IMG/VR virus record: IMGVR_UViG_3300046096_000285
Span: 9,795-73,794 of that record
DNA: 64,000 nucleotides
Origin: a virus
Direction: 5' to 3' (one strand)
In this document: piece by piece, positions 4,720 to 46,548 of the stretch
Position numbering within the stretch: the first letter of the stretch is position 1
How the letters are laid out: each line of letters opens with the position of its first letter
The notes under the pieces: model-generated
Database searches by the model: none
Told to the model about the DNA's origin: nothing
Seen by the model: the letters and a program-made list of their open reading frames with translations, nothing else
Made by a program: the position numbers and the translations under genes

Positions 4720-6196
<1,477 letters not shown>

Positions 6197-28527: not shown

Positions 28528-28653
28528 CTAGTAGCTCAGCTCCTTCCCAACTTCCAACGAAGCCTGGGACCTGAATGCTGAATTTAGTCCCGTATTCATT
28601 TTTTCAATACACGTATTCATTTTTTCACAAGAGCAAAACACCCGCTGCGTGAT

Positions 28654-28682
28654 TTGACTCGCCGAACCTTTTCTGCTAAGTT
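28654..28682 (+). promoter_or_regulatory. Sigma70-type promoter of first cassette (representative of ~20)
   Basis: TTGACT-17-TAAGTT; equivalent TTGnnn-16/18-TAnnnT follows nearly every 13-mer. Confidence 0.8.
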
Positions 28683-28709
28683 TGACCTAAGCAATGAAAG
28701 GACGGAAAA

Positions 28710-29240
28710 ATGCACGTTGCGCACATACTGCTTGTTCAAGCAGACTCAGCAGAGGACGCCTTTGAGAGGGTCGAAAGCGAACTATCACCAACTGACTATG
28801 GAGTTCGACCAGAGTGGTCAGACTGGCACAATGCCAACAACTCAGCAGAGATGAACTTTGCTGGTCGTTGGACTGGTTCATTCTTCAAGAGCGATAAAGA
28901 GGACGAGCCAAACCCAAACCACCTTTGCTACGCAGATGACAAGGCGCTCGCAGAAAGTGTTATCTCTGACCAGTTAGCCATGCGTGACGCGGAGATTGCC
29001 AACATTAGAAAGAACATGGTTTCAGACCTTTCTACTGTCACAATCAACCACTACGCAGAAAAGTGGAACATGGATTACTGGTATACCCAGAAGTTCCTCA
29101 AGTTGGCAGATAACGAGTGGACTCCAGACTCATACATTTATGACCTAGAAACCAGCACAGCGTCACTTCACTGGTTCATGGAGCGTGTCATGCTCGTGCC
29201 AAAGAAGCAGTTTCTGGTTCCTGTGGACTTCCATTATTAG
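28710..29240 (+). CDS. Hypothetical phage protein
   Basis: GRWTG and LVPVDFHY motifs; AAGGACGG RBS. Confidence 0.7.
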   Translation: MHVAHILLVQADSAEDAFERVESELSPTDYGVRPEWSDWHNANNSAEMNFAGRWTGSFFKSDKEDEPNPNHLCYADDKALAESVISDQLAMRDAEIANIRKNMVSDLSTVTINHYAEKWNMDYWYTQKFLKLADNEWTPDSYIYDLETSTASLHWFMERVMLVPKKQFLVPVDFHY

Positions 29241-29269
29241 AAGTGGAGAAGTGGTGATACACTTTTCTT

Positions 29270-29725
29270 ATGAAATCAATAGACAGATTTACAACTAAAT
29301 ACAAAATCAATCTAGAAACAGGCTGCTGGGACTGGATAGCAGGGACATCGGCTGGGTATGGAGCGTTCGCGTACGAGCGCGGCAAAAAAGCCCATAGATT
29401 CTCGTACGAATACCACAACAACACCATTCTCGGCGAACTGACTATCGACCACTTATGTAGGAATACACTGTGCGTAAATCCAGAACACTTAGAGGCAGTA
29501 CCTAAGGGGGAGAACTCTAGGCGCAGAAATCTCAACCACACCTATAAGAAAAAAGAAGTCTGTAAGAATGGACACTTCATAGGAAAAAATGAATACGTCA
29601 GACCAGATGGCTACTCTGAGTGCCTACTATGTAGGAGTGATAGAGGTAAGGCTTATAGGGAGAAGCATGGAGACGAGCATAGAGCCAAACTTCGTAAGTA
29701 TTACCACGACAAAAAAAATAAATAA
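29270..29725 (+). CDS. HNH endonuclease
   Basis: GCWDW, AHRFSY, DHLCRNTLCVNPEHLEAV..EN, CKNGH. Confidence 0.92.
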   Translation: MKSIDRFTTKYKINLETGCWDWIAGTSAGYGAFAYERGKKAHRFSYEYHNNTILGELTIDHLCRNTLCVNPEHLEAVPKGENSRRRNLNHTYKKKEVCKNGHFIGKNEYVRPDGYSECLLCRSDRGKAYREKHGDEHRAKLRKYYHDKKNK

Positions 29726-29814
29726 AAAACTTTCAAAATAGACTTGACACTTCGAACGAATGGTGTAAAGTTATCAGTAGGTGGAAATCACCACCCAAAA
29801 AGTAAGGACGGAAA

Positions 29815-30285
29815 ATGACAACAATCGTTGAGCCAGTAGTCGAGACAGGTAAGCCAGCAATCGCTGGTGTTGGTATCTATCTCGAACTCGTGCCAAAGGG
29901 CGACAACCCACACAACAAGACCACCCAGATTTTGTTTACCCCACAAGGTATGACAGAAAAGGGTCAGCCAGTAGGACTCGCCATGATTTCTCGTGAGGTC
30001 TCAACTTGGTCGCCACGCAAGCAATGGAGGCACAACTTCTCTCGCTTGACAGCAGAGCAAGAAGCACTCGCACCAGCAGACCAAGCACTCGCACTAATCG
30101 CTCGTTTCGAGACTTCTCTCAAGCGTGAGATTTACTATGGCTACGAACTACGCAACAAGCCAATCGTTTTCGAAGTTACCAACCTAGACCTCGCCGAGGT
30201 TCTGGACTGGAAAGCACCTGCTTCGGCACTACGCCGAATCCAAAAGGCACGAGTATCTCTCGGCTTTCCAGAGAAGTTAGTTTAG
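29815..30285 (+). CDS. Hypothetical protein
   Basis: TTGACA-17-TAAAGT promoter at 29744; GGACGG RBS. Confidence 0.65.
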   Translation: MTTIVEPVVETGKPAIAGVGIYLELVPKGDNPHNKTTQILFTPQGMTEKGQPVGLAMISREVSTWSPRKQWRHNFSRLTAEQEALAPADQALALIARFETSLKREIYYGYELRNKPIVFEVTNLDLAEVLDWKAPASALRRIQKARVSLGFPEKLV

Positions 30286-30308
30286 TCAAGGAATAGGACG
30301 GAAAAATC

Positions 30309-31349
30309 ATGACTACAACCACAGCAACCCCAGCACCAGCAACACGCTCAATGGACACCATTGAGGTAGACGAACTGTTCGCCAATCTGACAGGTATGCT
30401 TTTCAGCGTGGCTGTTCAGGACAAGGACGCAAGTCTCAAGTCTCCAAATCTCGACTCCCTAATGCCACCTGCCGCTCGTGCTAATCTTAGAGCAAAGGCT
30501 GGCACAGGACAGGTAAAGGTAGCGAAGAAGTCAATGGTCAATGTTGAAGCACTAGAGGGTGTCGAGAAGTATCCTCGCCCAAATGGTCAGGATTACTACG
30601 CTCGCCCTTGGGGTGAACACACAGACATCGAGGTTCTCCGCAAGGCTCGAACTGCTGACCAGTTTGTTCTCCTCTATGGTGCGCCCGGAACTGGTAAGAC
30701 TGCCGCTGTTGAAGCAGCGTTCCCAGACGAACTTTACACAGTCTTGGGTTCAGGCGACACCGAAGTTTCTGACCTCGTTGGAGGGTATGTTCAGACTCCA
30801 AGTGGCGGCTTCGAGTGGGTGGACGGTTCTCTCGTTCGCGCCGCCGAAGAGGGTAAGGTTCTTCTCATTGACGAGATTGGTCTCATTGACCCAAAGGTCT
30901 TGTCAATCGTTTATGGTCTCATGGACGGACGCAGGGAATACACCGTCACAGCGAACCCAGAGCGCGGAACTGTCAAGGCGAAAGAGGGCTTCTATGTAAT
31001 CGCCGCGACTAACCCAAATGCCCCAGGAGTTCGCCTATCAGAGGCGTTGCTATCTCGCTTCTCACTCCAAGTTGAAATGACAACTGACTGGGGTCTTGCC
31101 AAGAAGTTGGGCGTTCCAGTAATCGCTGTAACTGCCGCGCAGAACCTTGCGAAGAAGCAGAGCAATGGAGAAGTTTCTTGGTCTCCACAAATGCGTGAGT
31201 TGCTCAACTTCAAGACAGTCTCGACCTTGTTTGGTTCGAAGTTCGCTGTCGAGAACCTCGCAGGTTCAGCACCAGAACTTGACCGTTCTGTTGTGGTAGA
31301 TGTTCTGACCCGAGTGTTCGGCGAAGAAGTCAAGCCAGCCAAGATTTAG
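30309..31349 (+). CDS. MoxR/CbbQ/NorQ-type AAA+ ATPase
   Basis: GAPGTGKT, LLIDEI, IAATNP, LSEALLSRF. Confidence 0.92.
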   Translation: MTTTTATPAPATRSMDTIEVDELFANLTGMLFSVAVQDKDASLKSPNLDSLMPPAARANLRAKAGTGQVKVAKKSMVNVEALEGVEKYPRPNGQDYYARPWGEHTDIEVLRKARTADQFVLLYGAPGTGKTAAVEAAFPDELYTVLGSGDTEVSDLVGGYVQTPSGGFEWVDGSLVRAAEEGKVLLIDEIGLIDPKVLSIVYGLMDGRREYTVTANPERGTVKAKEGFYVIAATNPNAPGVRLSEALLSRFSLQVEMTTDWGLAKKLGVPVIAVTAAQNLAKKQSNGEVSWSPQMRELLNFKTVSTLFGSKFAVENLAGSAPELDRSVVVDVLTRVFGEEVKPAKI

Positions 31350-31470
31350 CAACACCGTCCGTTGCTAATCGGGGAGTGTCAAAAAAGTTTTCGAATGGAC
31401 TTGACACTCCCCACCCACTTATGCTACTTTGTTGGTAGGACGAAACACCAACACGAATAAAGGACGAAAC

Positions 31471-33243
31471 ATGGCACACTTATCTAGACTCTCAACTCGC
31501 ACGAGTTCAACTCCTGTCGAGTGGCTCAAGACCTGTTCACACATTGGCGAAGTTGCTAATGCTTGGGCTGGTCGTGGAGACCTTGCTGTCTACGCTGGCG
31601 AGGACGCTGGCATGGGCGAGGCACTTGCTTGCTTCATTATCGAGACAGCAGAAATCGAAATCAACCTACCAAAGGCTTTTGGCAAGGCGACCACTCCAGA
31701 AATGGTTGGCGACCTACGCTTGCGCGAAGTTCAGTATGACTGGGCAGAGCCAGTTGGCGTTATCTATCACGAGGCACTTCACGCTCGTTACACCACTTGG
31801 AACATGGAGGCACTCAAGGAGAGTCCAAAGGTCGAGATTGACGCTTTCATGTTGCTAGAGGAGTCACGCATTGAAGCACGAGGCGCACGACTAATCCCAA
31901 GTAACAAGTTGTTCTTGCGCTCGTCTGCCCTTGGTCTCTCGATTGGTGACATGGCAGAGGCTGTCAAGGACATGAGCGAGGTCTGGGCGACTGCCAACCT
32001 CGCAGGTCTGGCACTTGCTCGTGTAGACGCTGGCGTTCTCGAAGCGAGTGATGTCACGATTATCGAGGGCAAGGTTCTCGAGATTCTGGGCGAGGACTTG
32101 CTTGGCAAGTTGCGTTCAGTCTGGGTTCGCTTTCAGGCACTAGAGACTTCACAAATGGAACAGGGCAAGGCACTCGCTCAAGAGTGGGTCGAGTTGCTAC
32201 GCGAGGCAGACCCAGAGGGCGAACCTCAAGAGGGTGGCGCAGGTGGCGCAATGTCACAGGCACTCCAAGACTTGATTGACGCGCTTGGCGAGGCTGCTGG
32301 CGATACTGCTGTTCAGGTCTCGATTGACATGGGCGACCAGCAGGATTCAGAGGAACGCAAGGCAGAGGCAGAGGAACGCGCCAAGGAAAGCAAGCGACAG
32401 AACGACAACAAGCAGGAGTCGCGCGAAGTGTTCACTCGCTCGAATGGCTCGACTGGTTCTGGGTCAGATTCACGACTCCAAGAACAGCGCAACCCAACTG
32501 GACACGAACGCGCCGCCGCTGTTCAGATTGCCAAGATGTTGGAAAAGGCAAAGTATCGTGAACGCTCGCTCACCGAAATCAAGAGCCACGCGCCACAGGG
32601 TCGCCTCAAGGCTCGCGTTGCTATTCAGAACGCCGCCGCGAAGTCGCGTGGAGTTCGTGAGACACAGCCAGCGTGGGTCGCCAAGAAGCGCAAGCACACA
32701 GACGACCCGAACCTAAGCATTGGTGTCATGGTGGACATTAGCGGCTCAATGAGTTCGGCAATGGAGGCAATGGCAACTACGGCGTGGGTCATGGGAGAAG
32801 CAGGTCGCCGCGTTCAAGCCAAGACCGCAATGGTCTACTTCGGCTCGGGAGTGTTCTCGACTCTCAAGGTCGGTCAGAAGTTGGACAAGGTTTCGGTCTA
32901 CTCCGCGCCAGACGGAACGGAGAAGTTTGACAAGGCGTTCAAGGCACTAGACGGCGAGTTGAACCTGACCTACGGCGAGGGTGTTCGTATGTTGGTCGTT
33001 GTATCAGACGGACAGTTCACCAGCGTAGAAATGGAAAAGGCTCAAGCCGCGGCTCGCCTTTGTGACCGCAACGGAGTCGCGCTTCTTTGGATTACGCCAG
33101 AGGCTTGCTGGAGTGGCAAGGGTCAAGCCTTGCTCAACGGCACGAGCGGCGTGGTTCTGGACAAGATGAAAACAGACGAGATTGCGCTCGCTATCGGTAA
33201 AGCCGCCGCCGAAGCACTCGGTAAGGTGGGTTCAAAGTTCTAG
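31471..33243 (+). CDS. VWA-domain partner protein with N-terminal HEXXH
   Basis: YHEALH...LEESRIE; MIDAS DISGS, VVSDG. Confidence 0.88.
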   Translation: MAHLSRLSTRTSSTPVEWLKTCSHIGEVANAWAGRGDLAVYAGEDAGMGEALACFIIETAEIEINLPKAFGKATTPEMVGDLRLREVQYDWAEPVGVIYHEALHARYTTWNMEALKESPKVEIDAFMLLEESRIEARGARLIPSNKLFLRSSALGLSIGDMAEAVKDMSEVWATANLAGLALARVDAGVLEASDVTIIEGKVLEILGEDLLGKLRSVWVRFQALETSQMEQGKALAQEWVELLREADPEGEPQEGGAGGAMSQALQDLIDALGEAAGDTAVQVSIDMGDQQDSEERKAEAEERAKESKRQNDNKQESREVFTRSNGSTGSGSDSRLQEQRNPTGHERAAAVQIAKMLEKAKYRERSLTEIKSHAPQGRLKARVAIQNAAAKSRGVRETQPAWVAKKRKHTDDPNLSIGVMVDISGSMSSAMEAMATTAWVMGEAGRRVQAKTAMVYFGSGVFSTLKVGQKLDKVSVYSAPDGTEKFDKAFKALDGELNLTYGEGVRMLVVVSDGQFTSVEMEKAQAAARLCDRNGVALLWITPEACWSGKGQALLNGTSGVVLDKMKTDEIALAIGKAAAEALGKVGSKF

Positions 33244-33476
33244 GATTCCACTAGCGCAACGGTAGGCTTTCGGGTTCGTTCATGCCCGCCTCCTTTCCCT
33301 ATCGGCTACTGGATAGAGACCCTCGACAGATTCGTCCCTGTCGGGGGTTTCGCACTTTCGGCGAGCGCAGGTCGTATTCATTTTTTCATTCTGTCTTTCG
33401 ACTTCTGACGAAAGATGTTTGACACTCGTTTGAAGTATGCTAAGTTTGAACTATTCCTAGAAAGGGGAAAACAGAA

Positions 33477-34403
33477 ATGCCAAATCACGTTTGGAACAGC
33501 ATTGGGGTTTCAGGGGCTATCGCTGACATTGAAGCGTTCGTTGCTAAGGCTGGCAAGCCACACATTACAGAGTTCAAGGGCAAGCGTTATCAGGACGAAA
33601 CTGGCGCTTGGAAGTATGACCCAGAGATTATTGACACCCACGAGGACACAGACCCATTCTCATTCTGGAACTTCATAAAGCCAGACGACGAGATTCTTCC
33701 TGTCTACTTTGGACACGAGAAGTCAGAGAAGCCAGAGGGCTACGAGGGCTGGGACTTCGCGGAGAAGATGGCGCACGACCTCAAGTTCACAGGCAACAAC
33801 GCATACGACTGGAACGTTCGCAACTGGGGAACCAAGTGGGACGCATACGACCAGACCTTCGACGGCGTGACAACTGACGAAGCGATTGGAAAGGCGAGTG
33901 CGACTTACAGTTTCAATACGGCGTGGAGTATCCCAGTTCCAGTATTTGAAGCACTCTGCGAACAGCACCCAGAGTTGAGTTTCTCGTTTGAGTCGGAGGA
34001 GGAACAGGGCTGGGGCGCGACTTACGAGTCAAGCGCGGTAGACGACCCAGAGGACGGCGAGCCTACATCCGCACTACTTCTCATCAGCGAGTGGGACATC
34101 CCTGAGAGCCACGCAGAGTTGGTAGCCCGAGGGCGAGAATGCCACTGCGAGTATGACGACGACGAGGACTCGTGGTATGACGACTGCCCTCGTGAAGAAC
34201 GAGTGTTCACCGTTGTCGTTGAGCAGACTTTCGTGGTCAAGGCGACGGACGCAGAGAAGGCTTGGGAACTTGCCGAGGAACACCTCAACAAGCCGATTGA
34301 GAACTTGCCAGAGGGAGTCGAGCAGTCGGATGAGTATTCGCTGTTCGTCAAGAACCCAGAGACTGGCGAGCGTTTGTATCCGACACTCGGAGGGGGTGAG
34401 TAG
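33477..34403 (+). CDS. DUF1281/YubB-like ferredoxin-fold protein
   Basis: MPNHVWN, YDWNVRNWGTKWD, FNTAWS.P. Confidence 0.8.
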   Translation: MPNHVWNSIGVSGAIADIEAFVAKAGKPHITEFKGKRYQDETGAWKYDPEIIDTHEDTDPFSFWNFIKPDDEILPVYFGHEKSEKPEGYEGWDFAEKMAHDLKFTGNNAYDWNVRNWGTKWDAYDQTFDGVTTDEAIGKASATYSFNTAWSIPVPVFEALCEQHPELSFSFESEEEQGWGATYESSAVDDPEDGEPTSALLLISEWDIPESHAELVARGRECHCEYDDDEDSWYDDCPREERVFTVVVEQTFVVKATDAEKAWELAEEHLNKPIENLPEGVEQSDEYSLFVKNPETGERLYPTLGGGE

Positions 34404-34649
34404 CGTGGCAACACCAAAGACACCGAAGCCGAAGATGGGCAACGGCGCAACGACTCGTCTGACAGACGGACGACGCAAGTAGCAGAGGGAGAGGGCGAAA
34501 GCCCTCTCTTTTCTTTTGCCCCTCGTATTCATTTTTTCGTCATTGCCACGCCGATACACGCCGCGATTTGACACGAGTTTGGAATAGGGTATAGACTACG
34601 AGAGTAGTCAACGAGGAAATGCCTCGACTACACAAAGGAGGGGATTGAA

Positions 34650-35042
34650 ATGGCAACTGCCGAACTTCAATCAGCACAGGTTGCTAAGGCGACCACCAGC
34701 ATTACCAGCACCACAGAGGACAACCTAGTTGTTCTAACCCCTGCGATTCAGAAGCAGGTCAAGGCACTACGCGAGGCTCGCAATGTAGCGAAGCAGGCAA
34801 AGGCTCTAGGGGATACAGCACGAGACGTTATCTTGGAGTTCGTGGGGGAGACCACCACCAACCTCGTGGGCGTGGACGCAAAGGGCAAGCGTTTGATTAG
34901 CCTCAAGTTGATTCCAAGTTCAGAGAGTTTCGACTGGGCACGACTTCAACTTCAGCAGCCTGAGTTGTTCGAGATGCTCAAAAAGGAATACACCATTCCT
35001 CGTGGGGCAGGCGCACCAACTCCACGAGTGGACACGATTTAG
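34650..35042 (+). CDS. Hypothetical protein (similar to 38657..38983)
   Basis: Cassette gene; helix then FD...L....PELF. Confidence 0.6.
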   Translation: MATAELQSAQVAKATTSITSTTEDNLVVLTPAIQKQVKALREARNVAKQAKALGDTARDVILEFVGETTTNLVGVDAKGKRLISLKLIPSSESFDWARLQLQQPELFEMLKKEYTIPRGAGAPTPRVDTI

Positions 35043-35205
35043 TCCACTCACGAAAGTCGCTGGCGAGAGTTCCCCTCTCTCGCTGGCGATTTTTTGTATG
35101 GAGGCTGTATTCATTTTTTCATTAGATCCATAACTTCCAACGAATGGTTTGACTTGGAGATAACAAACTGGTAAAGTGGAAGTAACTCAACCAAAGGGGA
35201 TTCAA

Positions 35206-35658
35206 ATGAGAACCAGAGAATACGACCTCAACGTTTACGTCACAGATGGCGTGGCACGTTTGTCAGCATACGAATACACATATAGCGACAGCGACGACCC
35301 TCAGCCAAATGGCACAGAGATGAGCAAGTTCGTCACGTTGGAAGTTCCAATGGACAAAGCACACCACGACGAAGTGGCGTTTCTACTGAGCGACGAGGAC
35401 TGGCAAGACTCACCAGTGGCAGACTGGCAGGACTACGACAGCCCATGGGAAAACTTGGCGTGGCTAGAGACAGCACCGGCAAGCATAAGAGCGTGGGGAG
35501 ACGCGCTCGCGGAATACGAGCCGACCACTCAACACGAGTGGGAACTCTACACAATGGACTTGAAATACGGCGAACGGCGAGACGTGAAGTGCCTCAACTG
35601 CGACGCGACATACCCTATCTACCGTTTGACATGGGAACAGATGACGGCTAAGGTGTAG
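35206..35658 (+). CDS. Hypothetical protein
   Basis: AAGGGG RBS after cassette promoter. Confidence 0.6.
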   Translation: MRTREYDLNVYVTDGVARLSAYEYTYSDSDDPQPNGTEMSKFVTLEVPMDKAHHDEVAFLLSDEDWQDSPVADWQDYDSPWENLAWLETAPASIRAWGDALAEYEPTTQHEWELYTMDLKYGERRDVKCLNCDATYPIYRLTWEQMTAKV

Positions 35659-35660
35659 GT

Positions 35661-35885
35661 ATGAGAAAAGACATCAAGCAACTACGGATACTCGCAGAGC
35701 AACAAGGCTGGAGAGTAGAGCGCACTAACGGCGACCACTTACGGTGGCTCGCGCCAGAGGGTGGCATGGCTATCTACTCGGCAAGCACACCGTCTAATGC
35801 TCGCGGAATACTCAACCTCAGAGCGCAACTGCGTAAAGCGGGTCTACATTTAGAGAAGCACGGCAAGCAAAAGGTGAACGCATGA
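35661..35885 (+). CDS. HicA-like protein
   Basis: L..QGWRVERT.GDH.RW..P...STPS....N....L...G. Confidence 0.65.
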   Translation: MRKDIKQLRILAEQQGWRVERTNGDHLRWLAPEGGMAIYSASTPSNARGILNLRAQLRKAGLHLEKHGKQKVNA

Positions 35886-36178
35886 AACTGTATCGGCAAG
35901 CACTAGGCGAGGTTCTGCGCGAAGCAAGAACGGTGAGGGGTCAGACCCTGCGACAAGTCTCAACGGCTGCCTCGTGCGCCCTCGGATACCTGTCGGAGTT
36001 GGAGAACGGACACAAGGAAGCGTCCTCGGAGATTTTGGAGGGGCTTGCCCGTGCGCTCAAGGTGACGGTGAGTGAACTCGCTATCCGTGCTGGCTTGCGT
36101 ATAGCGGAGGAGAGTATCCCTGATACCCCTGCCGAACTCTACGAGGAAGCACCGGCCCTCATTCCTCACCGAGGATAG
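35882..36178 (+). CDS. XRE HTH regulator, ClgR-like
   Basis: LGEVLR..R...G.TLR.VS..A...LGYLSELE.G.KEASSE.L. Confidence 0.82.
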   Translation: MKLYRQALGEVLREARTVRGQTLRQVSTAASCALGYLSELENGHKEASSEILEGLARALKVTVSELAIRAGLRIAEESIPDTPAELYEEAPALIPHRG

Positions 36179-36292
36179 CCTCGGGTGGTAACCCCGTATT
36201 CATTTTTTCAACAACCGACACGGCGAGCGCAATACTTGCTTGACGGCTTGCCGTAGGGTATAGTTGGACTATCCAATGAAAGGGGTTGCCAA

Positions 36293-36688
36293 ATGGCAGA
36301 GAACATCACAACGGCGGGGCTAGTAGCCACCACACCAAGATACCTAGTCACGGCAGACGGCTTGCCGATTACTTCATTCCGGCTTGCCACAACTTCAAGA
36401 AAGTTTGACGCGCGAACTGGCGAGTGGGTTGACGGCGAGGCTAACTGGTATACCGTTACCGCCTTCCACGACTTGGCTATCAATGCGGCAAGCAGTATCG
36501 AGAAGGGTCACCGTATTGTCGTTCAAGGCGCGGTTAGAGTGCGCGACTGGGATAACGGCGAGCGAAGCGGAACATCCGTAGAGATTGAAGCCGAGGTCAT
36601 AGGTCACGACTTGAGTTGGGGAACCGCTGTGTTCACCCGAACCGTCTTGACTCGTAGGGTAGAGAAGCCAGAGACCGTGGGGGTATAG
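36293..36688 (+). CDS. ssb: Single-stranded DNA-binding protein (no acidic tail)
   Basis: FRLA...R......EW.DG..NWY.V..F..LA.N...S..KG.R..V.G, IGHDL.WG. Confidence 0.9.
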   Translation: MAENITTAGLVATTPRYLVTADGLPITSFRLATTSRKFDARTGEWVDGEANWYTVTAFHDLAINAASSIEKGHRIVVQGAVRVRDWDNGERSGTSVEIEAEVIGHDLSWGTAVFTRTVLTRRVEKPETVGV

Positions 36689-36864
36689 AGACCTTACCGA
36701 ACAGATAGAGAAAACGCGGGAACTTGCTATCCCGCGTTTTTTCATAGTCGGGGTCGTATTCATTTTTTCAACCGGCACGACACTTCACACTAAGATTTGG
36801 AAGTTGGCACGGAAAGTGGTAAGGTTGAACTATCACCGAAGACAAGGGTGAGAAAAGGGAAGAG

Positions 36865-38477: not shown

Positions 38478-38656
38478 GTCACGACAGGGAAGCCCCGCGG
38501 AAACGCGGGGTTTCTTTTTGCCCGCGGGAAGTCGCCGTATTCATTTTTTCAGCGAGCCTAGAGCCGACACGCTTAGGATTTGGTGTTTTTTGAAATAGGG
38601 GGTATCATTGACTTATGAAGTCAATAAGGCTTCACTAAATAGAAGGGGGTCGCCAA

Positions 38657-38983
38657 ATGGCTACCAAGATTCAGAAGGCAACCGCGGTTGTCACCGAGGC
38701 TCGCAAGGTCTCAAAGGTTGTTGTTGCTAACGCCGAGCGTCTAGCGTTCGTTCGTGCCGAGGTTATTCGTCTAGAGGCAGAAGCCAAGCTCTTGCGCGAT
38801 GGGCTTATCGCGGTTGCCGATGGCGCAACTACTCTTGTCCACAACAACATCGCCATCGTTGAGATTTCACCACGCTCAACCTCACGCGTAGACTCGAAGG
38901 CGTTGAAGGTTATGTTTCCTGAAGCATACGAGGCAACACTCAAAGTCACCGTATCACCTGTCGTGGATGTTCTGAAGCGATAA
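38657..38983 (+). CDS. Hypothetical protein
   Basis: Cassette gene; RVDSKALK..FPEAY. Confidence 0.65.
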   Translation: MATKIQKATAVVTEARKVSKVVVANAERLAFVRAEVIRLEAEAKLLRDGLIAVADGATTLVHNNIAIVEISPRSTSRVDSKALKVMFPEAYEATLKVTVSPVVDVLKR

Positions 38984-39207
38984 ACGCCACGAGGAAGCCC
39001 CCTAGGATTCTCTAGGGGGTTTTTCCTTACCCTAAACACGCCAAGCCCGCCACGAGGCACACAGCCCCGCCACGAGGGCGTATTCATTTTTTCGTCAAAA
39101 CACGCCAGCTGAGGATTTGATTTGACAAGTGTCCGGCTTATGGATAAGATTTAGTTATAACTAAATAGATGCACCACTCAATGCACCACCAACCTAAGGG
39201 GATTCAA

Positions 39208-39537
39208 ATGGCAACTATGGCACCTGCTACCAACACCACTACCAAGTTCGACCTAGGCGCGACTCTAGACGAGCCGACCACCGCATCAGTCGTCACCGAG
39301 GTCGAGAAGTTCGACAACACTATGGTCTATGCCAAGACTTCACTAGAGATGTTCGTTAGCGCGGATAACGTGGATGACACAGTCTACCTTGACCTTCGCC
39401 AACTCAACTTTGTACGACTGGGCCCAACCGACGAAGAACAGATGCACGTATTCACCACCTTGCTCAACCACCGCTTCACTCGCGAGCAGGCCGAGGCACT
39501 GGTCGCCACGTTCACTCACGAACTCGCGAAACTCTAG
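39208..39537 (+). CDS. Hypothetical protein
   Basis: AAGGGGATTCAAATG start. Confidence 0.6.
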   Translation: MATMAPATNTTTKFDLGATLDEPTTASVVTEVEKFDNTMVYAKTSLEMFVSADNVDDTVYLDLRQLNFVRLGPTDEEQMHVFTTLLNHRFTREQAEALVATFTHELAKL

Positions 39538-39690
39538 CGAGCGCGACAAGCCCCTGTCGAAAGGCAGGGGTTTTGTCATTCCCCGGCTGTATTCATTTTT
39601 TCACAAGAAGACACAGGAGTGGGCTGAGATACTATGTTTTGTCCGAGGGGTTTGATAAAATGGGAGTATCCAAATGAAAGGGGATAAAGA

Positions 39691-40047
39691 ATGACAAACT
39701 ACAGCGACGTGGAAGTTGCTCTTGAGAACGCTAAGGCGATTGCTTGGGACACCTGCCACAAGATTTACGTTCTAATGGATGACGAGCAAGTTGAGAAGAT
39801 GCGCGAGTACGAGTACGACCCTCTAATCACGAGCGACGAGATGGACCCTAGCGAAATGCTGTCCACGATTCAAACTTGGTATGAGGACTCTTGCGGATTG
39901 CGTTTCGTAGAAAGCGTCACCACAAATCACGAAGACCCTAACCTTGGGTTTGAAAGTCTGATTCCACAGGGCGCGGATGACGAAGATGACGACACCGACG
40001 AATCTGAAGACGACTACTTCGATGACGAGGATGACGAAGATGAGTAA
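39691..40047 (+). CDS. Acidic hypothetical protein
   Basis: IAWDTCHKIY...W..SC.LRF motif; D/E tail. Confidence 0.7.
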   Translation: MTNYSDVEVALENAKAIAWDTCHKIYVLMDDEQVEKMREYEYDPLITSDEMDPSEMLSTIQTWYEDSCGLRFVESVTTNHEDPNLGFESLIPQGADDEDDDTDESEDDYFDDEDDEDE

Positions 40048-40240
40048 GTTCGCGTTCAACCTAGTTCTCAAGACTGATTACATCGAAGCAGAGAACATCG
40101 AAGAAGCAGAGAAGTTGCTGAACAAGTACATCGATGGGCTGGCTATGGTTGGTGAGCCTGAGATTACTTGGGACGAAGTTGACTGGCAGACCTTTGAAGG
40201 CGACCTAGTAATCAAAGACTTTAGTTCGCCCCTCAACTGA
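40040..40240 (+). CDS. Small hypothetical protein
   Basis: Coupled; ends before terminator. Confidence 0.55.
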   Translation: MSKFAFNLVLKTDYIEAENIEEAEKLLNKYIDGLAMVGEPEITWDEVDWQTFEGDLVIKDFSSPLN

Positions 40241-40405
40241 GCACGAAGAAGAACGCTCTCGAAAGAGGGCGTTTTTTCTCAGGCCCGTTGTATTCATTTT
40301 TTCAACTGGCGACACGGGGGGTTGGTCGAAAGTTGCGAAGGTTTGTCGAAAGTAGTAAAGTAGTTCTGTTGGCAAAAGCCAGCGTAAAGGGATAAGGGGT
40401 TTGAA

Positions 40406-40630
40406 ATGAAGTTTGTAGTTCGTAGAGCAGTCATTGGAGTTCTAGCAGTTCCAGCAGTAGCCGGTGCGTATGTGTTTGGGTATCTAGGTCTGTTGCTTCT
40501 AGGCGCGGAGGGTGCGCTCAAGATTGAAGAAATCTGGAACAATGGAATGTTGATTGGTGGCGTGTGTGCCGTAATGCTCGTGTTCGCGCCACAGGTAAAC
40601 AAGTTCCTCGACAGGGTTACTGGAGAGTAA
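40406..40630 (+). CDS. Two-TM membrane protein
   Basis: Two hydrophobic helices; cassette gene. Confidence 0.65.
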   Translation: MKFVVRRAVIGVLAVPAVAGAYVFGYLGLLLLGAEGALKIEEIWNNGMLIGGVCAVMLVFAPQVNKFLDRVTGE

Positions 40631-40856
40631 AAGACTTGGCAGGGTTTATCCCCCTATCCCCTGCCCAAGAAAAGAGCGTGACCATTCCGCTCACGGCTAG
40701 GCACTTCCCCCAAGTGTCTAGCCTTTTTCTTTGCTCGGAAGTGTATTCATTTTTTCACCCTGCGACACGCGGATACAGATTGGATTTGCGCTCGCCGAGG
40801 ATTTCCTGTAATGTAGTTCTTGTAGCCAGCAAGGGGTTGGCAGACAAGGGGTTCAA

Positions 40857-41015
40857 ATGCTAAAGACTTCAACAGCCGAGTGCGTAGATTGCGCGGTTGC
40901 TATCACCAGCGACAACACGCAAGACGAGGGTGGAAAGTTTGCTTCACCACAGGGGGAATACGCTATCTGCGACAACTGCGCCAATGCTCGCATTGACGCT
41001 TACCTAGAGAACTAA
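40857..41015 (+). CDS. Small zinc-finger protein
   Basis: CVDC...CDNC; AAGGGG RBS. Confidence 0.6.
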   Translation: MLKTSTAECVDCAVAITSDNTQDEGGKFASPQGEYAICDNCANARIDAYLEN

Positions 41016-41027
41016 GGGGCAGGGAAA

Positions 41028-41252
41028 ATGGCCGACTCAATGAAAGGTTCTGGGATTGACTCCGAGGACTACACCGCTTGGTTCTTTTGCTCACATTGTG
41101 ACGAGGAACTGGAACTTGATGGAAAGTCAGACGACTATGGGATTATTGCGACAGCCGAGTGTCCTAAGTGCCGTTCAACCCTAGAGGTTGAAATGCCTAG
41201 CAAGGAACAGTTGCGCGAGGACTACCTAGCCGACTACGACCCAAACAACTAA
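41028..41252 (+). CDS. Small zinc-ribbon protein
   Basis: CSHC...CPKC. Confidence 0.65.
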   Translation: MADSMKGSGIDSEDYTAWFFCSHCDEELELDGKSDDYGIIATAECPKCRSTLEVEMPSKEQLREDYLADYDPNN

Positions 41253-41497
41253 ATAGACTTACCTAGCGCGGGCAACTTCGCTAGGTGGGAGAGAACCGAG
41301 TAACCCCCTTGCTCGTGCGACTCCGAAAGAGCCAGACACTAATCCCCTTGTGTCTGGTTCTTTTGTTTCTACGGTGCTATTCATTTTTTCAGCAAGACTC
41401 CCCCGGGCGTGTCGATTTGCGCCACCCTGGTTGGGGTGCTACAGTTGATACTGTAGTCAGGAAGCAGATAGCGGAGGGCTACACGCAAGGGGAAGAA

Positions 41498-41833
41498 ATG
41501 TCTTCAATCATTACTGTTCCAGTTCAGTTCCAGGCCGAGGACTTCTGGAGTGAAATCATGGGTTCAGCCTGGGAGACCTGGGACTGGTGGGTGACCCTGG
41601 ACTACAGCCAGGGCGCGTCCTGGGACAAGGTTGGCGAAATCACCGTTACATCCTGGGACGGCGAGACCGAGGGCGAGACCCTAGTCACCAAGACCCTCAC
41701 CATCCAGGACCTGGCTGAGTCTTACGGCAAGTGCCTGGCCGAAGGGTTCCGAATCAACATCCACGACCTGGACGCCGGCCAGGGCGACGTCATCCTTCAG
41801 ATGGCAATGTTCGGAGAAGTCGTCTACGGATAG
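41498..41833 (+). CDS. Hypothetical phage protein
   Basis: DLDA..GD.ILQ.A.FGEVVYG C-terminus; AAGGGG RBS. Confidence 0.7.
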   Translation: MSSIITVPVQFQAEDFWSEIMGSAWETWDWWVTLDYSQGASWDKVGEITVTSWDGETEGETLVTKTLTIQDLAESYGKCLAEGFRINIHDLDAGQGDVILQMAMFGEVVYG

Positions 41834-41870
41834 TTTCACCAGGACGCCCCTCGGCAGAAATGCCGGGGGG

Positions 41871-41921
41871 TTTTCCACAGCCTGTGGAAAGTTATCCACA
41901 GACTTATCCACATGTGGATAA
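41871..41921. promoter_or_regulatory. Cluster of five DnaA boxes
   Basis: TTTTCCACA 41871, TGTGGAAAG 41883, TTATCCACA 41892, TTATCCACA 41904, TGTGGATAA 41913. Confidence 0.85.
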
Positions 41922-42066
41922 CTTTTTTTGGAGAGGTCTATTCATTTTTTCGTCAAACGACACGCACTTACGGAGACGATTTGACAGCTGCCAAAAACCC
42001 GAGTAGGCTTACTAATGTAATCAGGAAGCCAAGGGGGCGGAGGGTTACTGAAGGGGTGGGGTTCCA

Positions 42067-42405
42067 ATGGGACTTCTTATCAGCGTGTATCGGTCGGACT
42101 ACGACAGCAAGGCAAATGTTTTCCACGGAAAGCGTCAGCTAGTTCTCGTGAATGTCGAAGGGCCATTCCAGCCATCAGACAACGCACCAGCTGCCAAGTT
42201 GGTTCAGGGTCACGGTAAGACCGCAATCATCGTGCCAGCGGACGAAGGCTTTGACGGCGTTCAGATGAACGGCGGAACTTACGGCTCAACCAGCGACAGT
42301 CGCTTTCAGCGAGCCGTAGAGGGACTAGTCGGAGTCTCACACTTTGCGGTGGCAATCCACGACCGTCGTGAGTCGTGGGCGGAATACGAGCAGTTCAGCC
42401 AGTAG
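42067..42405 (+). CDS. Hypothetical phage protein
   Basis: M.GG.Y..TSDSRF...IHDR.E motif. Confidence 0.7.
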   Translation: MGLLISVYRSDYDSKANVFHGKRQLVLVNVEGPFQPSDNAPAAKLVQGHGKTAIIVPADEGFDGVQMNGGTYGSTSDSRFQRAVEGLVGVSHFAVAIHDRRESWAEYEQFSQ

Positions 42406-42560
42406 GCAACCAAGCGAAAGGCTCACCCGAAGGGGTGGGCTTTTTTCTTGCTCGTTAGTCTATTCATTTTTTCATCCGGATGCGGGGAAGCTTGCGCGGT
42501 TCGTTGGAAGTTGGTAAAGTTGGAGTATCAACCAGATTGGTTGAAGATAAGGGGCTTCAA

Positions 42561-42908
42561 ATGGAAAAGATTGGTTTGGTAGTGGACTCGGAGTTCACCG
42601 CGTCTGTGACCAGGTTGTCACTCAAGGAACTACAAGCTGCGGTCGATGGTCTGATTCAGCCGATTGACATTCGCGAGGGCTTGACTATGTGGGTAAACGA
42701 GGAGTTCTTGTTTCGCTCAGAACCAGACGCAAACGTTTTGGCTAGTGCGTTCTTCGCTGAGGCTGGTGGAAAGTATGACATCCACGGAACTGTCGTCTTC
42801 ACTGGTGGCACGGATGAGGATGGCAACACTCTCGGGCTGTCAGACGAGCACCGCGAGTTAGTGGAGTCGCTCTGTAAGTTCGGGATTGGCGTTCGCGAAA
42901 TGGCTTAG
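42561..42908 (+). CDS. DUF3846-like protein
   Basis: L.ELQ.AV.G.I....MWVNEE......N..A.....I.G.VVF.G. Confidence 0.75.
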   Translation: MEKIGLVVDSEFTASVTRLSLKELQAAVDGLIQPIDIREGLTMWVNEEFLFRSEPDANVLASAFFAEAGGKYDIHGTVVFTGGTDEDGNTLGLSDEHRELVESLCKFGIGVREMA

Positions 42909-43080
42909 ATTTCAAAAAAGGAAAGTCCGGCTTCGGTCGGGCTTTTTCTTTTTCTCGGGGCTATTCATTTTTTCCTTCAGCTCGCAGACAACACACGGAA
43001 GTTCGTGGGAAGTTGCGTAGGCAGGGCGTTTCGATTAGGCTTAGGTCATAAGCCAAATGGTTTGGCGAAAGGGGATTCAA

Positions 43081-43314
43081 ATGGCAACCAAGAACGCGAA
43101 CGCAGATTTCGTTTTCGAACTCGTTATGAAGATGGCGGGCGGGGCGGACAAGTATTCAATCCACACTCAGGGCGCAATCTGGGCTGAGTGTCAGCGCAAC
43201 TCATCACTACAAACGCTAGCGGGAATGTATCTCGTTGGTTCATCAGCACGCGCAGAGAACAACCTAAAGAAGTTGCGCTCTGCCGTTTACTCAACATTCC
43301 TAGAGAGGAACTAA
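43081..43314 (+). CDS. Hypothetical protein
   Basis: AAGGGGATTCAAATG start. Confidence 0.6.
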   Translation: MATKNANADFVFELVMKMAGGADKYSIHTQGAIWAECQRNSSLQTLAGMYLVGSSARAENNLKKLRSAVYSTFLERN

Positions 43315-43316
43315 TA

Positions 43317-43544
43317 ATGGCAATGTCATACGGAGAGCGTAAAGCGCAAGCAATCGCTAGGCGTAATGCGGAACTACTCACGCGAGATTCTATGTTGGAG
43401 ATTCGCAGTATTCTAAGTCCAATGCCCTACGCGCCTAAGTCGGTGCTAGAGGGCGTGCCGTTCGTAATAGAGAACTTGACCCCAATGGAATTAGATGTGG
43501 AGTTCGTGGGCGACACAATCACAATCAAAGAAGCGGTGCGCTAA
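43317..43544 (+). CDS. Hypothetical protein
   Basis: GAGG RBS, coupled. Confidence 0.55.
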   Translation: MAMSYGERKAQAIARRNAELLTRDSMLEIRSILSPMPYAPKSVLEGVPFVIENLTPMELDVEFVGDTITIKEAVR

Positions 43545-44325
43545 TGCGGGCGTGGCACTTGCTCAAGTATCGAACTTGGCGCGTGGTCGGTTCGCTGGCG
43601 TTCGGTCTGTATCACCGCTCTGCTCAATGGTCTCACGAAGCGTTCGTGCGGGCTGGCAAGTCTGGTGCGGACAATGACTAGGGGCGAGAGTCTGGCTGTT
43701 CTTTTACGCTCGGTGGCTGGCGGTCTGGGATTTGTCTGGCTGTTTGGTTTTGCCGTTGGCTGGCAAGACCCTGTATCGCCGTTCGTTGTTTCCACACTTG
43801 CCGTTGGATTCTTGTGGGGTGCGTGGCGCGTGGGTCGTTAGTGACCCCGCGTTCGCGCTTGCGTGCGGACTATTCATTTTTTCCCTAATCCCCCTGCGGG
43901 CACACGGATGATTTGACTTTCATTTGCGGAGTAGGGTAGGCTAGTCGTAGACCAGCCAAGGGGGCTGGGGAGAGGGGCATCATGATTCACATCTTCTGTG
44001 CGGACTGCGACGGCTGGGACTCGTTCCCATCTGGCGGGTCACACAACTGCGAGACCGTCGAGTTCGTTACCAACCCATCCGCTGGGTTCATCGGTGGCGA
44101 CTGCTGGTTCGGGGACGACTCGGACTACTAGGCGAAAGCCTAGCCAACCCCTCACCTTCGGGTGGGGGGTTTCTTTCTGTTCGTGAGAAGTTGTCTGTGC
44201 GGGAGTGCTATTCATTTTTTCCCTAGGCGACACGCTTGCGGGGGGTATGATTTGACTTTGCCGGAGGATGTGTTAGGCTAGTCCTAGGACAAGCCAAAGG
44301 GGCTTGCCAGAAAAGGGGATTCAAA

Positions 44326-44496
44326 ATGTTCGGTCAGACTTTCTCAGGAATCGAAATCACTGTTCGCGAAGCAAACGGCTCAATCGTATGTGCGCCAACC
44401 TACGAAGCACACACCACGGCGAAGCAGTTGGAACTTATCAACGCAACCAAAGCAATGCTTACCGCTGGTCGCTCAATCACTTGGCGTTTGTTCTAA
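44326..44496 (+). CDS. Small hypothetical protein (56 aa)
   Basis: AAGGGGATTCAAAATG start; fills cassette. Confidence 0.6.
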   Translation: MFGQTFSGIEITVREANGSIVCAPTYEAHTTAKQLELINATKAMLTAGRSITWRLF

Positions 44497-44802
44497 GCCA
44501 ACTTCCAACGAAGCCCGTCACCTCGGTGGCGGGTTTTGTTTTGCCCTGTGGGTCTATTCATTTTTTCGTCAAGTCGGGCATGCGGGTGACACGATTTGAT
44601 TCGCGCACCGTAAAGTGCTAAGCTCATGGGTAGAGCTTCAAAGGGGGGCTCAATAGTTCAAAGGGGTATTTATGTTTGGGTTCAACGAGTGCGCACACTC
44701 TGAGTCGGAATCGTATGGCACTAGCCAGATTCATTGGGATGACCGCTCTGCGGGTATCGGCTGGGTTCAAGCTCCGTGCGCTGAGTGCGGGGAATCGCTA
44801 AC

Positions 44803-45564
44803 ATGGGTTATCAACGCATGAGCGCCCTGCTAGCAACCCGCGAGACTACTGCGGGCATTATCGCGGGGATGCTTACCGAAAACACTGGTCGGAGCTTCCT
44901 AGACTCTGGGGGTGAATCGGGACGTGCGTGGCAGAGAAACGCGGGCATGACCGTGGCAGACTTTGAAGCCCGCCCTGCGGGTACCTATGACGCTGAGTAT
45001 GAGACGCTTACGGTAGACACATTCCATTACTTGAATGAGCTACTAACCTTTGACGCTGAGCGCACTGCGGAATGGGTGACCTTTGACGCTGAGCGGTCGC
45101 ACCTATCGTGGGGCGAAACTTTGGATGAATGGCTTGACACTCTAGGCGTCCCTGCCGAAGGGGGTGGGGATTTTTACTCTAACGCGCGATGGGGATTCAA
45201 CAGCTACAACTTTGATGGGTGTTTGCTGAGCTCCACGATTCAGGGCGTCAAGTTTGTCTCTGCGGGCACTGAGTACCTAGCCCTTCAGATTCATGGCGGG
45301 GCTGACGTGCGGGGCGGTTACACGGCATTCAAGATTTTCACTGGAGACATTGAATCAGTGATTCTCGGGACTACTCGCGCAACCCTGCGATGCCCTGAGT
45401 GCGACTTTTATGCGGGCTACTCCGATGGCATGTTGGAAGATTACTACCTAGGTGACGCGCTAGCTGACCCGAACATGTTGATTGAGATGGATGTGCCTAC
45501 GGAGCTCCCTGCGGGATGGGCAATCTCTGACGGTTGCCCTTTGCATAAGGTCGCTCTGGTTTAG
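44803..45564 (+). CDS. Hypothetical phage protein
   Basis: MLTENTG..FLDSGG..GR.WQRN, FNSYN, LQIHGGADVRGGYT. Confidence 0.75.
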   Translation: MGYQRMSALLATRETTAGIIAGMLTENTGRSFLDSGGESGRAWQRNAGMTVADFEARPAGTYDAEYETLTVDTFHYLNELLTFDAERTAEWVTFDAERSHLSWGETLDEWLDTLGVPAEGGGDFYSNARWGFNSYNFDGCLLSSTIQGVKFVSAGTEYLALQIHGGADVRGGYTAFKIFTGDIESVILGTTRATLRCPECDFYAGYSDGMLEDYYLGDALADPNMLIEMDVPTELPAGWAISDGCPLHKVALV

Positions 45565-45733
45565 CTCTACTCGGGAACCCCTGCTTCGGCGGGGGTTTTC
45601 GCATGTGCGGGGGAGCTATTCATTTTTTCCTGCTCTGCAACGAGTGCGGGCGTGATTTGACAAGTTTCGAATAGCTGATAGGATTTAGTCATAACTAAAT
45701 AGCTCCAATTAACCGACAACCAAAGGGGACAAC

Positions 45734-45976
45734 ATGTCAACAGCAACAACTACCGCTAGCTTCTTCGTGCTAGCCGTCTCAACCAAGGGTGAGCTGCGCT
45801 TCACCCGTGGCAACAGCTTCGTTACTCGCGGTGCTGCAACCTTCGAAGCTTCTCAGAGCAACAAGCTCACTGAGCACCTTCGTGCTCAGGGATGGGACAC
45901 TAGCTACAAAGTGTTCTCTGCCGATGAGCTCAACGCCCTGGGTGCGCTAGGTATTCGCATCGGTGAAGCCTACTAG
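45734..45976 (+). CDS. Hypothetical protein
   Basis: Last motif-bearing cassette. Confidence 0.6.
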   Translation: MSTATTTASFFVLAVSTKGELRFTRGNSFVTRGAATFEASQSNKLTEHLRAQGWDTSYKVFSADELNALGALGIRIGEAY

Positions 45977-46102
45977 GCACACGCTCAAAGATGACCCCGC
46001 CATCGTGCGGGGTTTTCTTTTTGCTCAGGGGTTGCATTTATCTTGCGGGGCATGTATGATTGACTTATCAAGTCAAGGTGACTTGGAGATAAGGGGTTCA
46101 AA

Positions 46103-46315
46103 ATGAAAACACGTAACGCACGCGCATGGAGCGCAATCTTTATTCTTGGCATGGCAGTAGTCGGCGCGGTCGACTTGAACAACATCCAATCAGCTGACGA
46201 TGCCAGTGAATTCTTTGGGTACGTTGTCGCTGTAGACGTGGCCATGTTTGCGGTAGGCCTAGCCCTGTTCGCCTACAACATCGCAACCTTCAAGCGTTCA
46301 AAGGTAGGTGCATAA
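46103..46315 (+). CDS. Two-TM membrane protein
   Basis: TTGCAT-17-TATGAT promoter; GATAAGGGG RBS. Confidence 0.6.
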   Translation: MKTRNARAWSAIFILGMAVVGAVDLNNIQSADDASEFFGYVVAVDVAMFAVGLALFAYNIATFKRSKVGA

Positions 46316-46548
46316 TGACGCACGCGGTGTTGATTGAAGATGCACTTACGGGTGACCTTCTTGACCTTCGTTACTACTGCTCTGATTCATGCGCTCAGGA
46401 TGACGTGGCCTACTCAGGATGGAATGGCTGCATTGAGCTCATGTTTGGGCAAGTGTGTGAGCGTGAAGGGTGTGAGAGCATCCTGCATGGCGTGAGCGAG
46501 TGTGTCTGCTCTGACGCTTCGTGTGTCGGGTCTCTGATAGACGTCTAG
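46315..46548 (+). CDS. Cys-rich small protein
   Basis: YCSDSC and further Cys; TAATG coupling. Confidence 0.55.
   Translation: MTHAVLIEDALTGDLLDLRYYCSDSCAQDDVAYSGWNGCIELMFGQVCEREGCESILHGVSECVCSDASCVGSLIDV

Follow-up and report, generated by a model that had tools for sequence, protein, structure and literature searches.

A box of 16 bp, repeated without variation through a gene array of an uncultured freshwater (lake) actinophage, is described here, and we consider it slightly more probable than all other readings combined (roughly 0.55) that it is both an operator-like upstream element of one particular type of host sigma-A promoter and the crossover point at which expression cassettes are shuffled. 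Common gene control and gene shuffling would probably be served by the same short sequence. The window, by which we mean the whole 64,000-nt stretch that was analysed, corresponds to bases 9795-73794 of the 73.8-kb IMG/VR record IMGVR_UViG_3300046096_000285, which is rated 44% complete (full genome estimate ~170 kb), and all positions are those of the window. New findings include the conservation of the box in four phage lineages, its fixed spacing to the -35 hexamer, and the shuffling of cassettes at the box.

An invariant box opens 21 cassettes

The exact 13-mer TATTCATTTTTTC is present in 23 copies in the window, 22 on the + strand (28593-45629) and one on the - strand (29583-29595), the expectation from 100 shuffles of the window being 0.00. 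No variant with one mismatch was found in the window, where matches with two mismatches number two (chance level), and the remaining 9.8 kb of the virus record contains zero copies. The invariant core is in fact 16 bp long, G-TATTCATTTTTTC-AC: information content peaks across the 13-mer plus G(-1), A(+1) and C(+2), and the -35 and -10 hexamers are far less conserved. An ACACG sub-motif 3' of the box was rejected as part of the element, as it accompanies only about half of the copies and its offset is variable.

An earlier note on this DNA, made from the sequence alone, had described 22 perfect copies in about 21 cassettes, all of them on the same strand and intergenic. The perfect + strand copies were recovered exactly, and for these 22 the description holds, but a 23rd copy, inverted and located inside an HNH_3 endonuclease open reading frame (ORF), had been missed. 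The count of 21 cassettes also stands, with the correction that the first two copies are arranged in tandem before a single promoter. The array and the box copies are listed below, with the promoter hexamers (start positions) and genes that follow; gap denotes the distance from the end of the box to the start of the -35.

28593-46548, + strand: cassette array, 21 terminator-insulated units, each opened by the invariant box
28593-28605, + strand: box copy 1, distal member of the tandem pair, 21 nt 5' of copy 2; 48 nt to the -35 at 28654
28614-28626, + strand: box copy 2; -35 TTGACT 28654; TG-extended -10 TAAGTT 28677; genes 28710-29240 and HNH 29270-29725
33375-33387, + strand: box copy 3; -35 TTGACA 33419; -10 TAAGTT 33441; gene 33477-34403 (DUF1281_C-like, conserved family Aa)
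34526-34538, + strand: box copy 4; -35 TTGACA 34568; -10 TAGACT 34592; gene 34650-35042
35108-35120, + strand: box copy 5; -35 TTGACT 35149; -10 TAAAGT 35172; genes 35206-35658, 35661-35885 and 35882-36178
36197-36209, + strand: box copy 6; -35 TTGCTT 36236; -10 TATAGT 36259; gene 36293-36688 (SSB)
36757-36769, + strand: box copy 7; -35 TTGGAA 36797; -10 TAAGGT 36820
37213-37225, + strand: box copy 8; -35 TTGATT 37267 (gap 41); -10 TAAGTT 37290
37796-37808, + strand: box copy 9; -35 TTGACT 37846 (gap 37); -10 TACTTT 37869
38538-38550, + strand: box copy 10; -35 TTGGTG 38580; -10 TATCAT 38603
39081-39093, + strand: box copy 11; -35 TTGACA 39122; -10 TAAGAT 39145
39590-39602, + strand: box copy 12; weak -35 39634; TG-extended -10 TAAAAT 39656
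40291-40303, + strand: box copy 13; -35 TTGCGA 40333; -10 TAAAGT 40356
40744-40756, + strand: box copy 14; -35 TTGCGC 40786; -10 TAATGT 40809
41378-41390, + strand: box copy 15; -35 TTGCGC 41417; -10 TACAGT 41440
41939-41951, + strand: box copy 16; -35 TTGACA 41981; -10 TAGGCT 42004; gene 42067-42405 (conserved family At)
42461-42473, + strand: box copy 17; -35 TTGCGC 42492 (gap 18); -10 TAAAGT 42515; DUF3846 gene ending at 42908
42962-42974, + strand: box copy 18; -35 TTGCGT 43013 (gap 38); -10 TAGGCT 43036; four small genes, to 43841
43871-43883, + strand: box copy 19; -35 TTGACT 43913; -10 TAGGCT 43937
44209-44221, + strand: box copy 20; -35 TTGACT 44252; -10 TAGGCT 44274
44555-44567, + strand: box copy 21; -35 TTGATT 44596; -10 TAAGCT 44619; genes to 45564
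45617-45629, + strand: box copy 22; -35 TTGACA 45657; -10 TAGGAT 45679; four small genes, to 46548
29270-29725: HNH_3 endonuclease ORF, which holds the sole inverted box of the window
29583-29595, - strand: inverted 13-mer, inside the HNH_3 ORF, coding GKNEY

The junctions share one order of parts: a stable hairpin (usually with a T run), a spacer, the box, ~28 nt, the -35, 16-18 nt, TAnnnT, a ribosome-binding site (RBS) and a start codon. A unit of hairpin terminator, box, sigma70-type promoter, RBS and genes had already been proposed in the earlier note, and it was seen at all 21 junctions. Every junction has an upstream stable hairpin of -11 to -27 kcal/mol, and a strict stem-plus-T-run terminator precedes 11/22 copies in the window and 44/105 overall (42%) versus 5.6% of random positions. 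The spacer from hairpin to box measures 13-27 nt (and more) and is mostly G+C-rich. In the window, a TAnnnT located 16-18 nt after a -35-like hexamer was found at 21/21 junctions, the hexamer having the form TTGnnn at 20 of the 21 and the -10 being preceded by TGn at 12. The promoter of a unit reads gaTTTGac for the -35, 17 nt, and TGnTAnnnT for the -10. Downstream of these promoters come a purine-rich RBS and a start codon, followed by one to five mostly small genes, and the array ends at 46548, where the final gene of cassette 21 stops.

Two junctions with long gaps, 37213-37300 and 37796-37880 (41 and 37 nt), have the stretch caacaactcacgaatgatttga in common before the -35, which suggests a local duplication of a junction.

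Distribution of the box in other phages

IMG/VR pattern scans found multi-copy contigs confined to a small set of freshwater records, and grouping of these contigs by nucleotide identity gave three lineages beyond the window phage, namely lineage B (a 129-kb contig plus three overlapping contigs), lineage C (G001 plus two other contigs) and lineage D (one contig of 11.6 kb). Lineages B, C and D are mutually 80-88% identical at the nucleotide level; the window phage shares ~70% nucleotide identity with them, in conserved genes only, and proteins shared across the four box-bearing lineages are 35-70% identical. Together, the four lineages hold 98 direct and 6 inverted exact copies of the box and no one-mismatch variant. 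A motif search genome-wide and in relatives had been proposed as a check in the earlier note; within the 73.8-kb record the box is confined to the array, and it is present in four lineages and strongly biased in orientation (98:6).

A search for the box with its spacing and TTGAC in 185,579 species genomes returned 38 hits, all of them single and in unrelated AT-rich taxa, with no actinobacterial genome among them. These scattered hits are attributed to chance; the search, which was directed at a host regulon or prophage, gives no support to a host-genome regulon, nor to a host factor as binder of the box. No mention of the 13-mer was found in the phage papers of the library that was searched. 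In lineage B, (TTTTTG)n and GGGTGTTT-like units form long simple repeats in the spacers at the far end of the array (~35.9 kb, L137/L075 region), where they surround direct and inverted boxes.

A distinct class of promoters

The end of the box lies 27-29 nt from the start of the -35 in 74/105 non-redundant copies of the four lineages (31/39 in lineage B, 20/23 in C, 10/14 in D and 13/22 in the window), and 17/22 window copies have a gap of 26-31 nt. The same gap scoring at random array positions gave a flat distribution. The distance from the terminator stem to the box is broad, with no fixed value, and because the gap to the -35 is narrow and that to the stem broad, the box is assigned to the promoter, not to the terminator. 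It occupies ~-76 to -64 from the presumed transcription start (centre ~-70), which is outside the UP-element zone and within the range of class I activators. Strict helical phasing of the outliers (18, 37-41 and 48 nt) was suggestive, but a conserved family with a gap of 23 nt contradicts it, and the idea was rejected.

Sigma-A-like promoters without the box are also present in the window phage, at 23218, 29744, 31401, 47069 and 48881, one of which can be described as follows:

29744-29771, + strand: box-free sigma-A-like promoter, TTGACA-16-TAAAGT

This promoter precedes a conserved operon composed of a 156-aa gene, an AAA_5 ATPase gene (30309-31349) and a 604-aa gene (31429-33243). Because good sigma-A-like promoters of the phage lack the box, it defines one promoter class and does not mark every promoter.

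Orientation is informative as well. The box at the first promoter of the region is inverted in lineages B and C, 19-21 nt from the -35, and a further inverted copy is located at a junction, 57 nt from a -35. Occurrence in either orientation fits a protein-binding site and speaks against a core promoter or a promoter for a phage polymerase. A core promoter element on either strand was rejected, as the box is without TAnnnT or TTGnnn in usable register, and an RNA-level role, such as a processing or antitermination site, was rejected too, since the promoter and not the hairpin sets the position of the box.

The PafBC/RecA-NDp element (TGTCR-N11-TAnnnT) was likewise rejected for the window array, in which it occurs 0 times. 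At box promoters of the relatives, TGTCR-N10-12-TAnnnT was observed in 15/39 cases in lineage B (L211, L210) and 8/23 in lineage C (L234); these two lineages appear to add a second layer of control, of the PafBC/RecA-NDp form, onto the box promoters.

Shuffling of cassettes between lineages

Arrays were cut at the boxes and the pieces clustered by tblastx into cassette families, which revealed a colinear backbone of conserved families broken by lineage-specific cassettes, with many indels. The order is Ab-Ac in lineage B versus Ac-Ab in C and D, Ag-Ah in B, C and D versus Ah-Ag in the window, and Ar-As versus As-Ar between lineages, and cassettes Ak and Au are displaced in lineage C. Transpositions, gains and losses are all represented in this comparison of cassette order and content between relatives, which was another of the checks suggested beforehand.

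Blastn of lineage D against C showed homology blocks that start 1-2 nt before a box and end 1-5 nt past the next one, in permuted order. Across all pairs of B, C and D, block starts fall at -2 or -1 of a box in 18/58 cases and block ends at +13 to +20 in 30/61, so that 48/119 termini (~40%) are on the box versus ~4% expected, the expectation being the share of the array that lies inside that interval around the box. At 15 junctions with a homologous downstream cassette and a changed upstream neighbour, ungapped identity 5' of the box is 0.20-0.27 (random), versus 0.52-0.64 at 20 junctions with unchanged context. Since block termini sit on the box and upstream identity is random where the neighbour has changed, the mobile unit is best described as running from box to box, with the exchange points apparently in or beside the 16-bp core. 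The suggestion of the earlier note that shared junctions may let cassettes be swapped is supported by both the order changes and the block ends.

For a comparison between strains, contigs of four freshwater DNA runs were aligned to the window. Several cassette-scale jumps were seen, for example from 41257 to 43726 and from 42054 to 44340 in run X8; they have short sides and depend on a low likeness threshold and were not used to place breakpoints. A search for RNA runs that contain the stretch found none.

A model of control and exchange, and its alternatives

We propose that a sequence-specific DNA-binding protein, most likely phage-encoded, would bind the box on one face of the helix beside RNA polymerase and place more than 20 promoters under one switch, be it activation or later shut-off. 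Short-homology recombination would cross over at the box, because it is the sole sequence common to otherwise unrelated junctions, and would move, add or remove whole units that already carry their own promoter and terminator. The operator half of this proposal is based on spacing, invariance, class specificity and orientation tolerance, and the shuffling half on the comparative lineage data; the binding protein itself, the sign and timing of regulation and the mechanism of recombination are what we infer. The array region is hyperplastic and probably early; a possible early or host-takeover role, as put forward in the earlier note, is suggested by the host-type promoters and the small ORFan cargo. 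The coordinately switched regulon of the earlier note receives indirect support from the fixed -35 spacing, from the invariance of the box compared with the drifting -35 and -10, and from the box-free promoters. One gene of the array could encode the binder, and it is listed with the ORF that overlaps it:

35882-36178, + strand: XRE-type helix-turn-helix (HTH) protein (HTH_31/HTH_3), 98 aa, third gene behind box copy 5
35661-35885: faint HicA-like ORF, 74 aa; HicA-toxin match with E 0.0015, below the cut-off; overlaps the start of the HTH gene

The HTH gene is conserved in all four box-bearing lineages and its product is a candidate box-binding regulator; no homologue was found in the 41.6-kb stretch of phage DSL-LC01 searched, which includes the array of that phage. 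An HTH_17 protein is encoded in the window as well, at 24004-24555.

Several observations weigh against the combination of operator and crossover point. Zero variation over 104 copies is stricter than is usual for transcription-factor sites, and an enzyme recognition site would account for it no less well. Spacing in the window is looser, 9/22 copies being outside 27-29 nt, and the conserved family Aa has 23. As the box is the only conserved anchor in the spacers, block ends at this place are partly expected for any rearrangement. The HTH gene adjoins the faint HicA-like ORF, and the two (35661-36178) may be a toxin-antitoxin-like pair carried as cassette cargo. Moreover, XRE-type HTH proteins usually bind palindromes, whereas the box is asymmetric. 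Finally, with ~44% of the genome available, failure to find a recombinase or polymerase carries little weight.

We consider it unlikely, if less so than the other alternatives below, that a dedicated system of site-specific recombination or endonuclease-stimulated exchange (integron- or homing-like) uses the box as its core site. The link with promoters would then be secondary, each cassette having its promoter behind the site. Such an enzyme model is kept alive because the invariance is so strict, 16 bp being absolutely invariant in 104 copies as is typical of enzyme recognition sites, and the homology blocks begin and finish on the box, one orientation dominates with occasional inverted copies at junctions, and the phage is rich in mobile nucleases (HNH ORFs 4603-5256, 9208-9747 and 29270-29725, and a probable LAGLIDADG intein in the large terminase, TerL). 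However, recombination alone leaves the spacing of 27-29 nt to the -35 across unrelated cassettes unexplained, 16 bp of identity suffices for rare homology-driven events, and no tyrosine or serine recombinase was found in the 73.8-kb record (~44% of the genome). There is also no attC-like imperfect inverted repeat, the hairpins being ordinary G+C stems with T runs at variable distance. Both functions might instead belong to one dedicated phage protein that has the 16-bp box as its address, switches the promoter class and catalyses or targets cassette exchange, which we regard as rather improbable; if true, this dual-acting protein would represent a promoter-coupled, integron-like gene capture in a lytic actinophage and would explain the invariance of the box.

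Could host RNA polymerase read the box with no dedicated factor? A far-upstream UP-like or bent A-tract element, aiding the polymerase through the alpha C-terminal domain or DNA wrapping, would account for the T6 run amid G+C-rich spacers and for the fixed position relative to the -35. Early promoters of the Bacillus phages SP82 and SPO1 have upstream A-tracts. An AT-rich region is also contained in the promoter-early stem-loops (PeSLs) of T4-type phages (PMC2839356). UP elements, however, are degenerate and located at -40 to -60, neither of which applies to the box (-76 to -64), the half that is not an A-tract (TATTCA, G, AC) is as invariant as the T-tract, inverted copies are found at other distances, and strong-looking promoters of the window phage lack the box. 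We regard this explanation as improbable.

We attach even less weight to a signal for a transcription enzyme encoded by the phage. The box would then act as a promoter, or as a sequence-specific pause/termination signal of the T7 class II type that backs the hairpin terminators. The class II signal of T7 consists of a specific heptamer followed by a U run, and the box has a comparable form, a specific half and then T6, and sits just past terminators; its invariance also resembles that of single-subunit polymerase promoters. Its position, on the other hand, is set by the downstream host-type promoter and not by the terminator, and inverted copies would fire or stop transcription in the wrong direction. 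No T7-like RNA polymerase or sigma region 2 was found in the record (~44% of the genome), which is a weak argument, as the RNA_pol model matched no control genome. Least probable of all, in our opinion, is a strand-specific nick site or another DNA-processing mark (modification, injection), comparable to the nicks of T5/phiKMV-type phages. The strand bias (98:6), the exact sequence and the HNH nucleases of the phage would agree with it, but the box is limited to one array rather than spread over the genome and is phased to promoters, and contigs assemble across all sites, though contigs cannot show nicks.

Cassette cargo and genome context

Besides the HTH protein (35882-36178), the nameable cargo comprises a DUF1281_C-like protein, SSB (36293-36688) and a DUF3846 protein; the rest of the cassette genes are ORFans, and the majority of genes in the cassettes lack a Pfam or PHROG hit. 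The HNH_3 homing-endonuclease gene (29270-29725) is a presence/absence polymorphism among related strains, because contigs of the freshwater runs X8 and X10 join 29212 to 29714 with 26 other letters between and lack the gene. A different feature is found 5' of box copy 16, where the hairpin (41871-41921) contains perfect DnaA-box words (TTATCCACA twice plus its complement) and might serve the phage as an origin or as a sink for DnaA. It is here that the contigs of other strains diverge, with loose ends at 41888 and 41929.

Genes flanking the array indicate a large tailed phage: NrdI, ribonucleotide reductase, dUTPase, ThyX, a dNMP kinase and an M23 peptidase on the 5' side, and an NlpC/P60 protein, the large terminase with its probable LAGLIDADG intein and the portal on the 3' side. 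Portal identity is 71% with the lake metagenome phage DSL-LC01 and 60-67% with Microbacterium phages (Pumpernickel 67%), and because of these portal relatives a freshwater actinobacterium is the most likely host. The array itself had no megablast match among 50,697 phage records. Further features of the flanks are:

49722-52163: large terminase, 813 aa vs ~470 aa in DSL-LC01
4603-5256 and 9208-9747: free-standing HNH endonuclease ORFs, within nucleotide-metabolism genes
8700-9134: below-cutoff HNH match, within nucleotide-metabolism genes

The terminase probably contains an intein, as Hom_end/LAGLIDADG_3 matches are found at residues 274-346, N-terminal to the Terminase_6N match. One of the three HNH-type ORFs (4603-5256, 8700-9134 and 9208-9747) separates two ribonucleotide reductase subunits, and a ferritin-like (Dps-type) gene (54596-55120) is flanked by the portal and large head-region ORFs.

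Significance

Whether phage mosaicism arises via conserved linkers or via random illegitimate recombination is an old debate. Here, a single 16-bp word with no relation to the promoter hexamers delimits the units in four diverged lineages and matches the ends of shuffled blocks, and the box makes the linker model directly testable in actinophages. From an invariant asymmetric site at ~-70 of more than 20 (up to 39) promoters, a highly specific regulator of the early programme can also be predicted, in phages of freshwater Actinobacteria, a host group whose phage biology is almost unknown. From a practical point of view, the unit of box, promoter, RBS and terminator would provide a ready insulated expression part for Actinobacteria, and the box is an easy bioinformatic tag with which hyperplastic gene arrays may be found in metagenomes.

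Comparison with known systems

The host-takeover module of SPO1 and the pre-early region of T5 resemble the array in that many small early-type genes are served by multiple strong host-type promoters and terminators, in a cluster upstream of or apart from the structural genes. To our knowledge, no invariant upstream box is shared within either of them.

Integron arrays (attC/attI, IntI) likewise consist of unrelated small cassettes in the same orientation, hairpin-ended and with a short conserved core at which exchanges occur. The box array differs in having no attC architecture and no GTTRRRY core, its cassettes have their own promoter and terminator, and it resides in a lytic-type phage. An IntI-type tyrosine recombinase (PF00589) was not found in the 73.8-kb record (~44% of the genome).

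With the stoperators of cluster A mycobacteriophages (L5, Bxb1), the box shares a 13-bp asymmetric multi-copy site with one preferred orientation (98 vs 6), a location in small intergenic spaces of an actinophage and presumed binding by one phage-encoded HTH protein. Stoperators differ in sequence, tolerate mismatches, are distributed genome-wide within operons and block elongation for the prophage repressor, and the remark of the earlier note that they are not tied one-to-one to promoters was a fair one. The box, in contrast, is confined to one array, has no variants and is found at a fixed distance 5' of a promoter. No integrase or immunity cassette was found in the available 44% of the genome.

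A syntenic array is present in DSL-LC01 (OQ999401.1), between a 'cobalamin biosynthesis protein' gene (homologue of 31429-33243) and the terminase, and holds ~40 small genes, each behind a hairpin, the repeated motif TTCTAAAGATGTTATART and a strong RBS. In that phage, however, the repeat TTCTAAAGATGTTATART is an extended -10 promoter that follows the hairpin directly, and a separate box upstream of it is lacking; DSL-LC01 does not contain the 13-mer, and Pumpernickel, which is more distant, shows no long repeat of any kind.

The closest precedent, which the earlier note had omitted, is the PeSL mobile regulatory cassettes of the T4-type phages RB49, phi1, PST and nt-1 (Arbiol et al. 2010, PMC2839356; Comeau et al. 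2014, PMC4122927). There, composite promoter/stem-loop motifs recombine with one another, and ORFans are inserted, deleted or replaced as a result. Like the PeSLs, the array has a composite intergenic motif made of a sigma-70-like promoter and an adjacent stem-loop terminator, and is dense in a hyperplastic region of small ORFans, many of its cassettes being unique to one lineage. Indels, replacements and reshuffling with exchange points in the shared junction sequence are also common to both, and each moved gene carries its own promoter and terminator. On the other hand, the host and phage group are unrelated (the window phage is an actinophage close to DSL-LC01 and Pumpernickel), the two show no homology in sequence, and promoter and terminator activity (with reporters) as well as mini-circles have been demonstrated for PeSLs, whereas the array is known here from metagenome contigs alone. 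The sequence shared among PeSLs is the promoter itself plus an AT-rich region, with crossovers spread across it, while in the array the hexamers drift, the shared sequence is a separate invariant 16-bp box at ~-70, and block ends are concentrated there. On these grounds, the element is best viewed as an actinophage analogue of the T4-type PeSL cassettes rather than as a member of that family.

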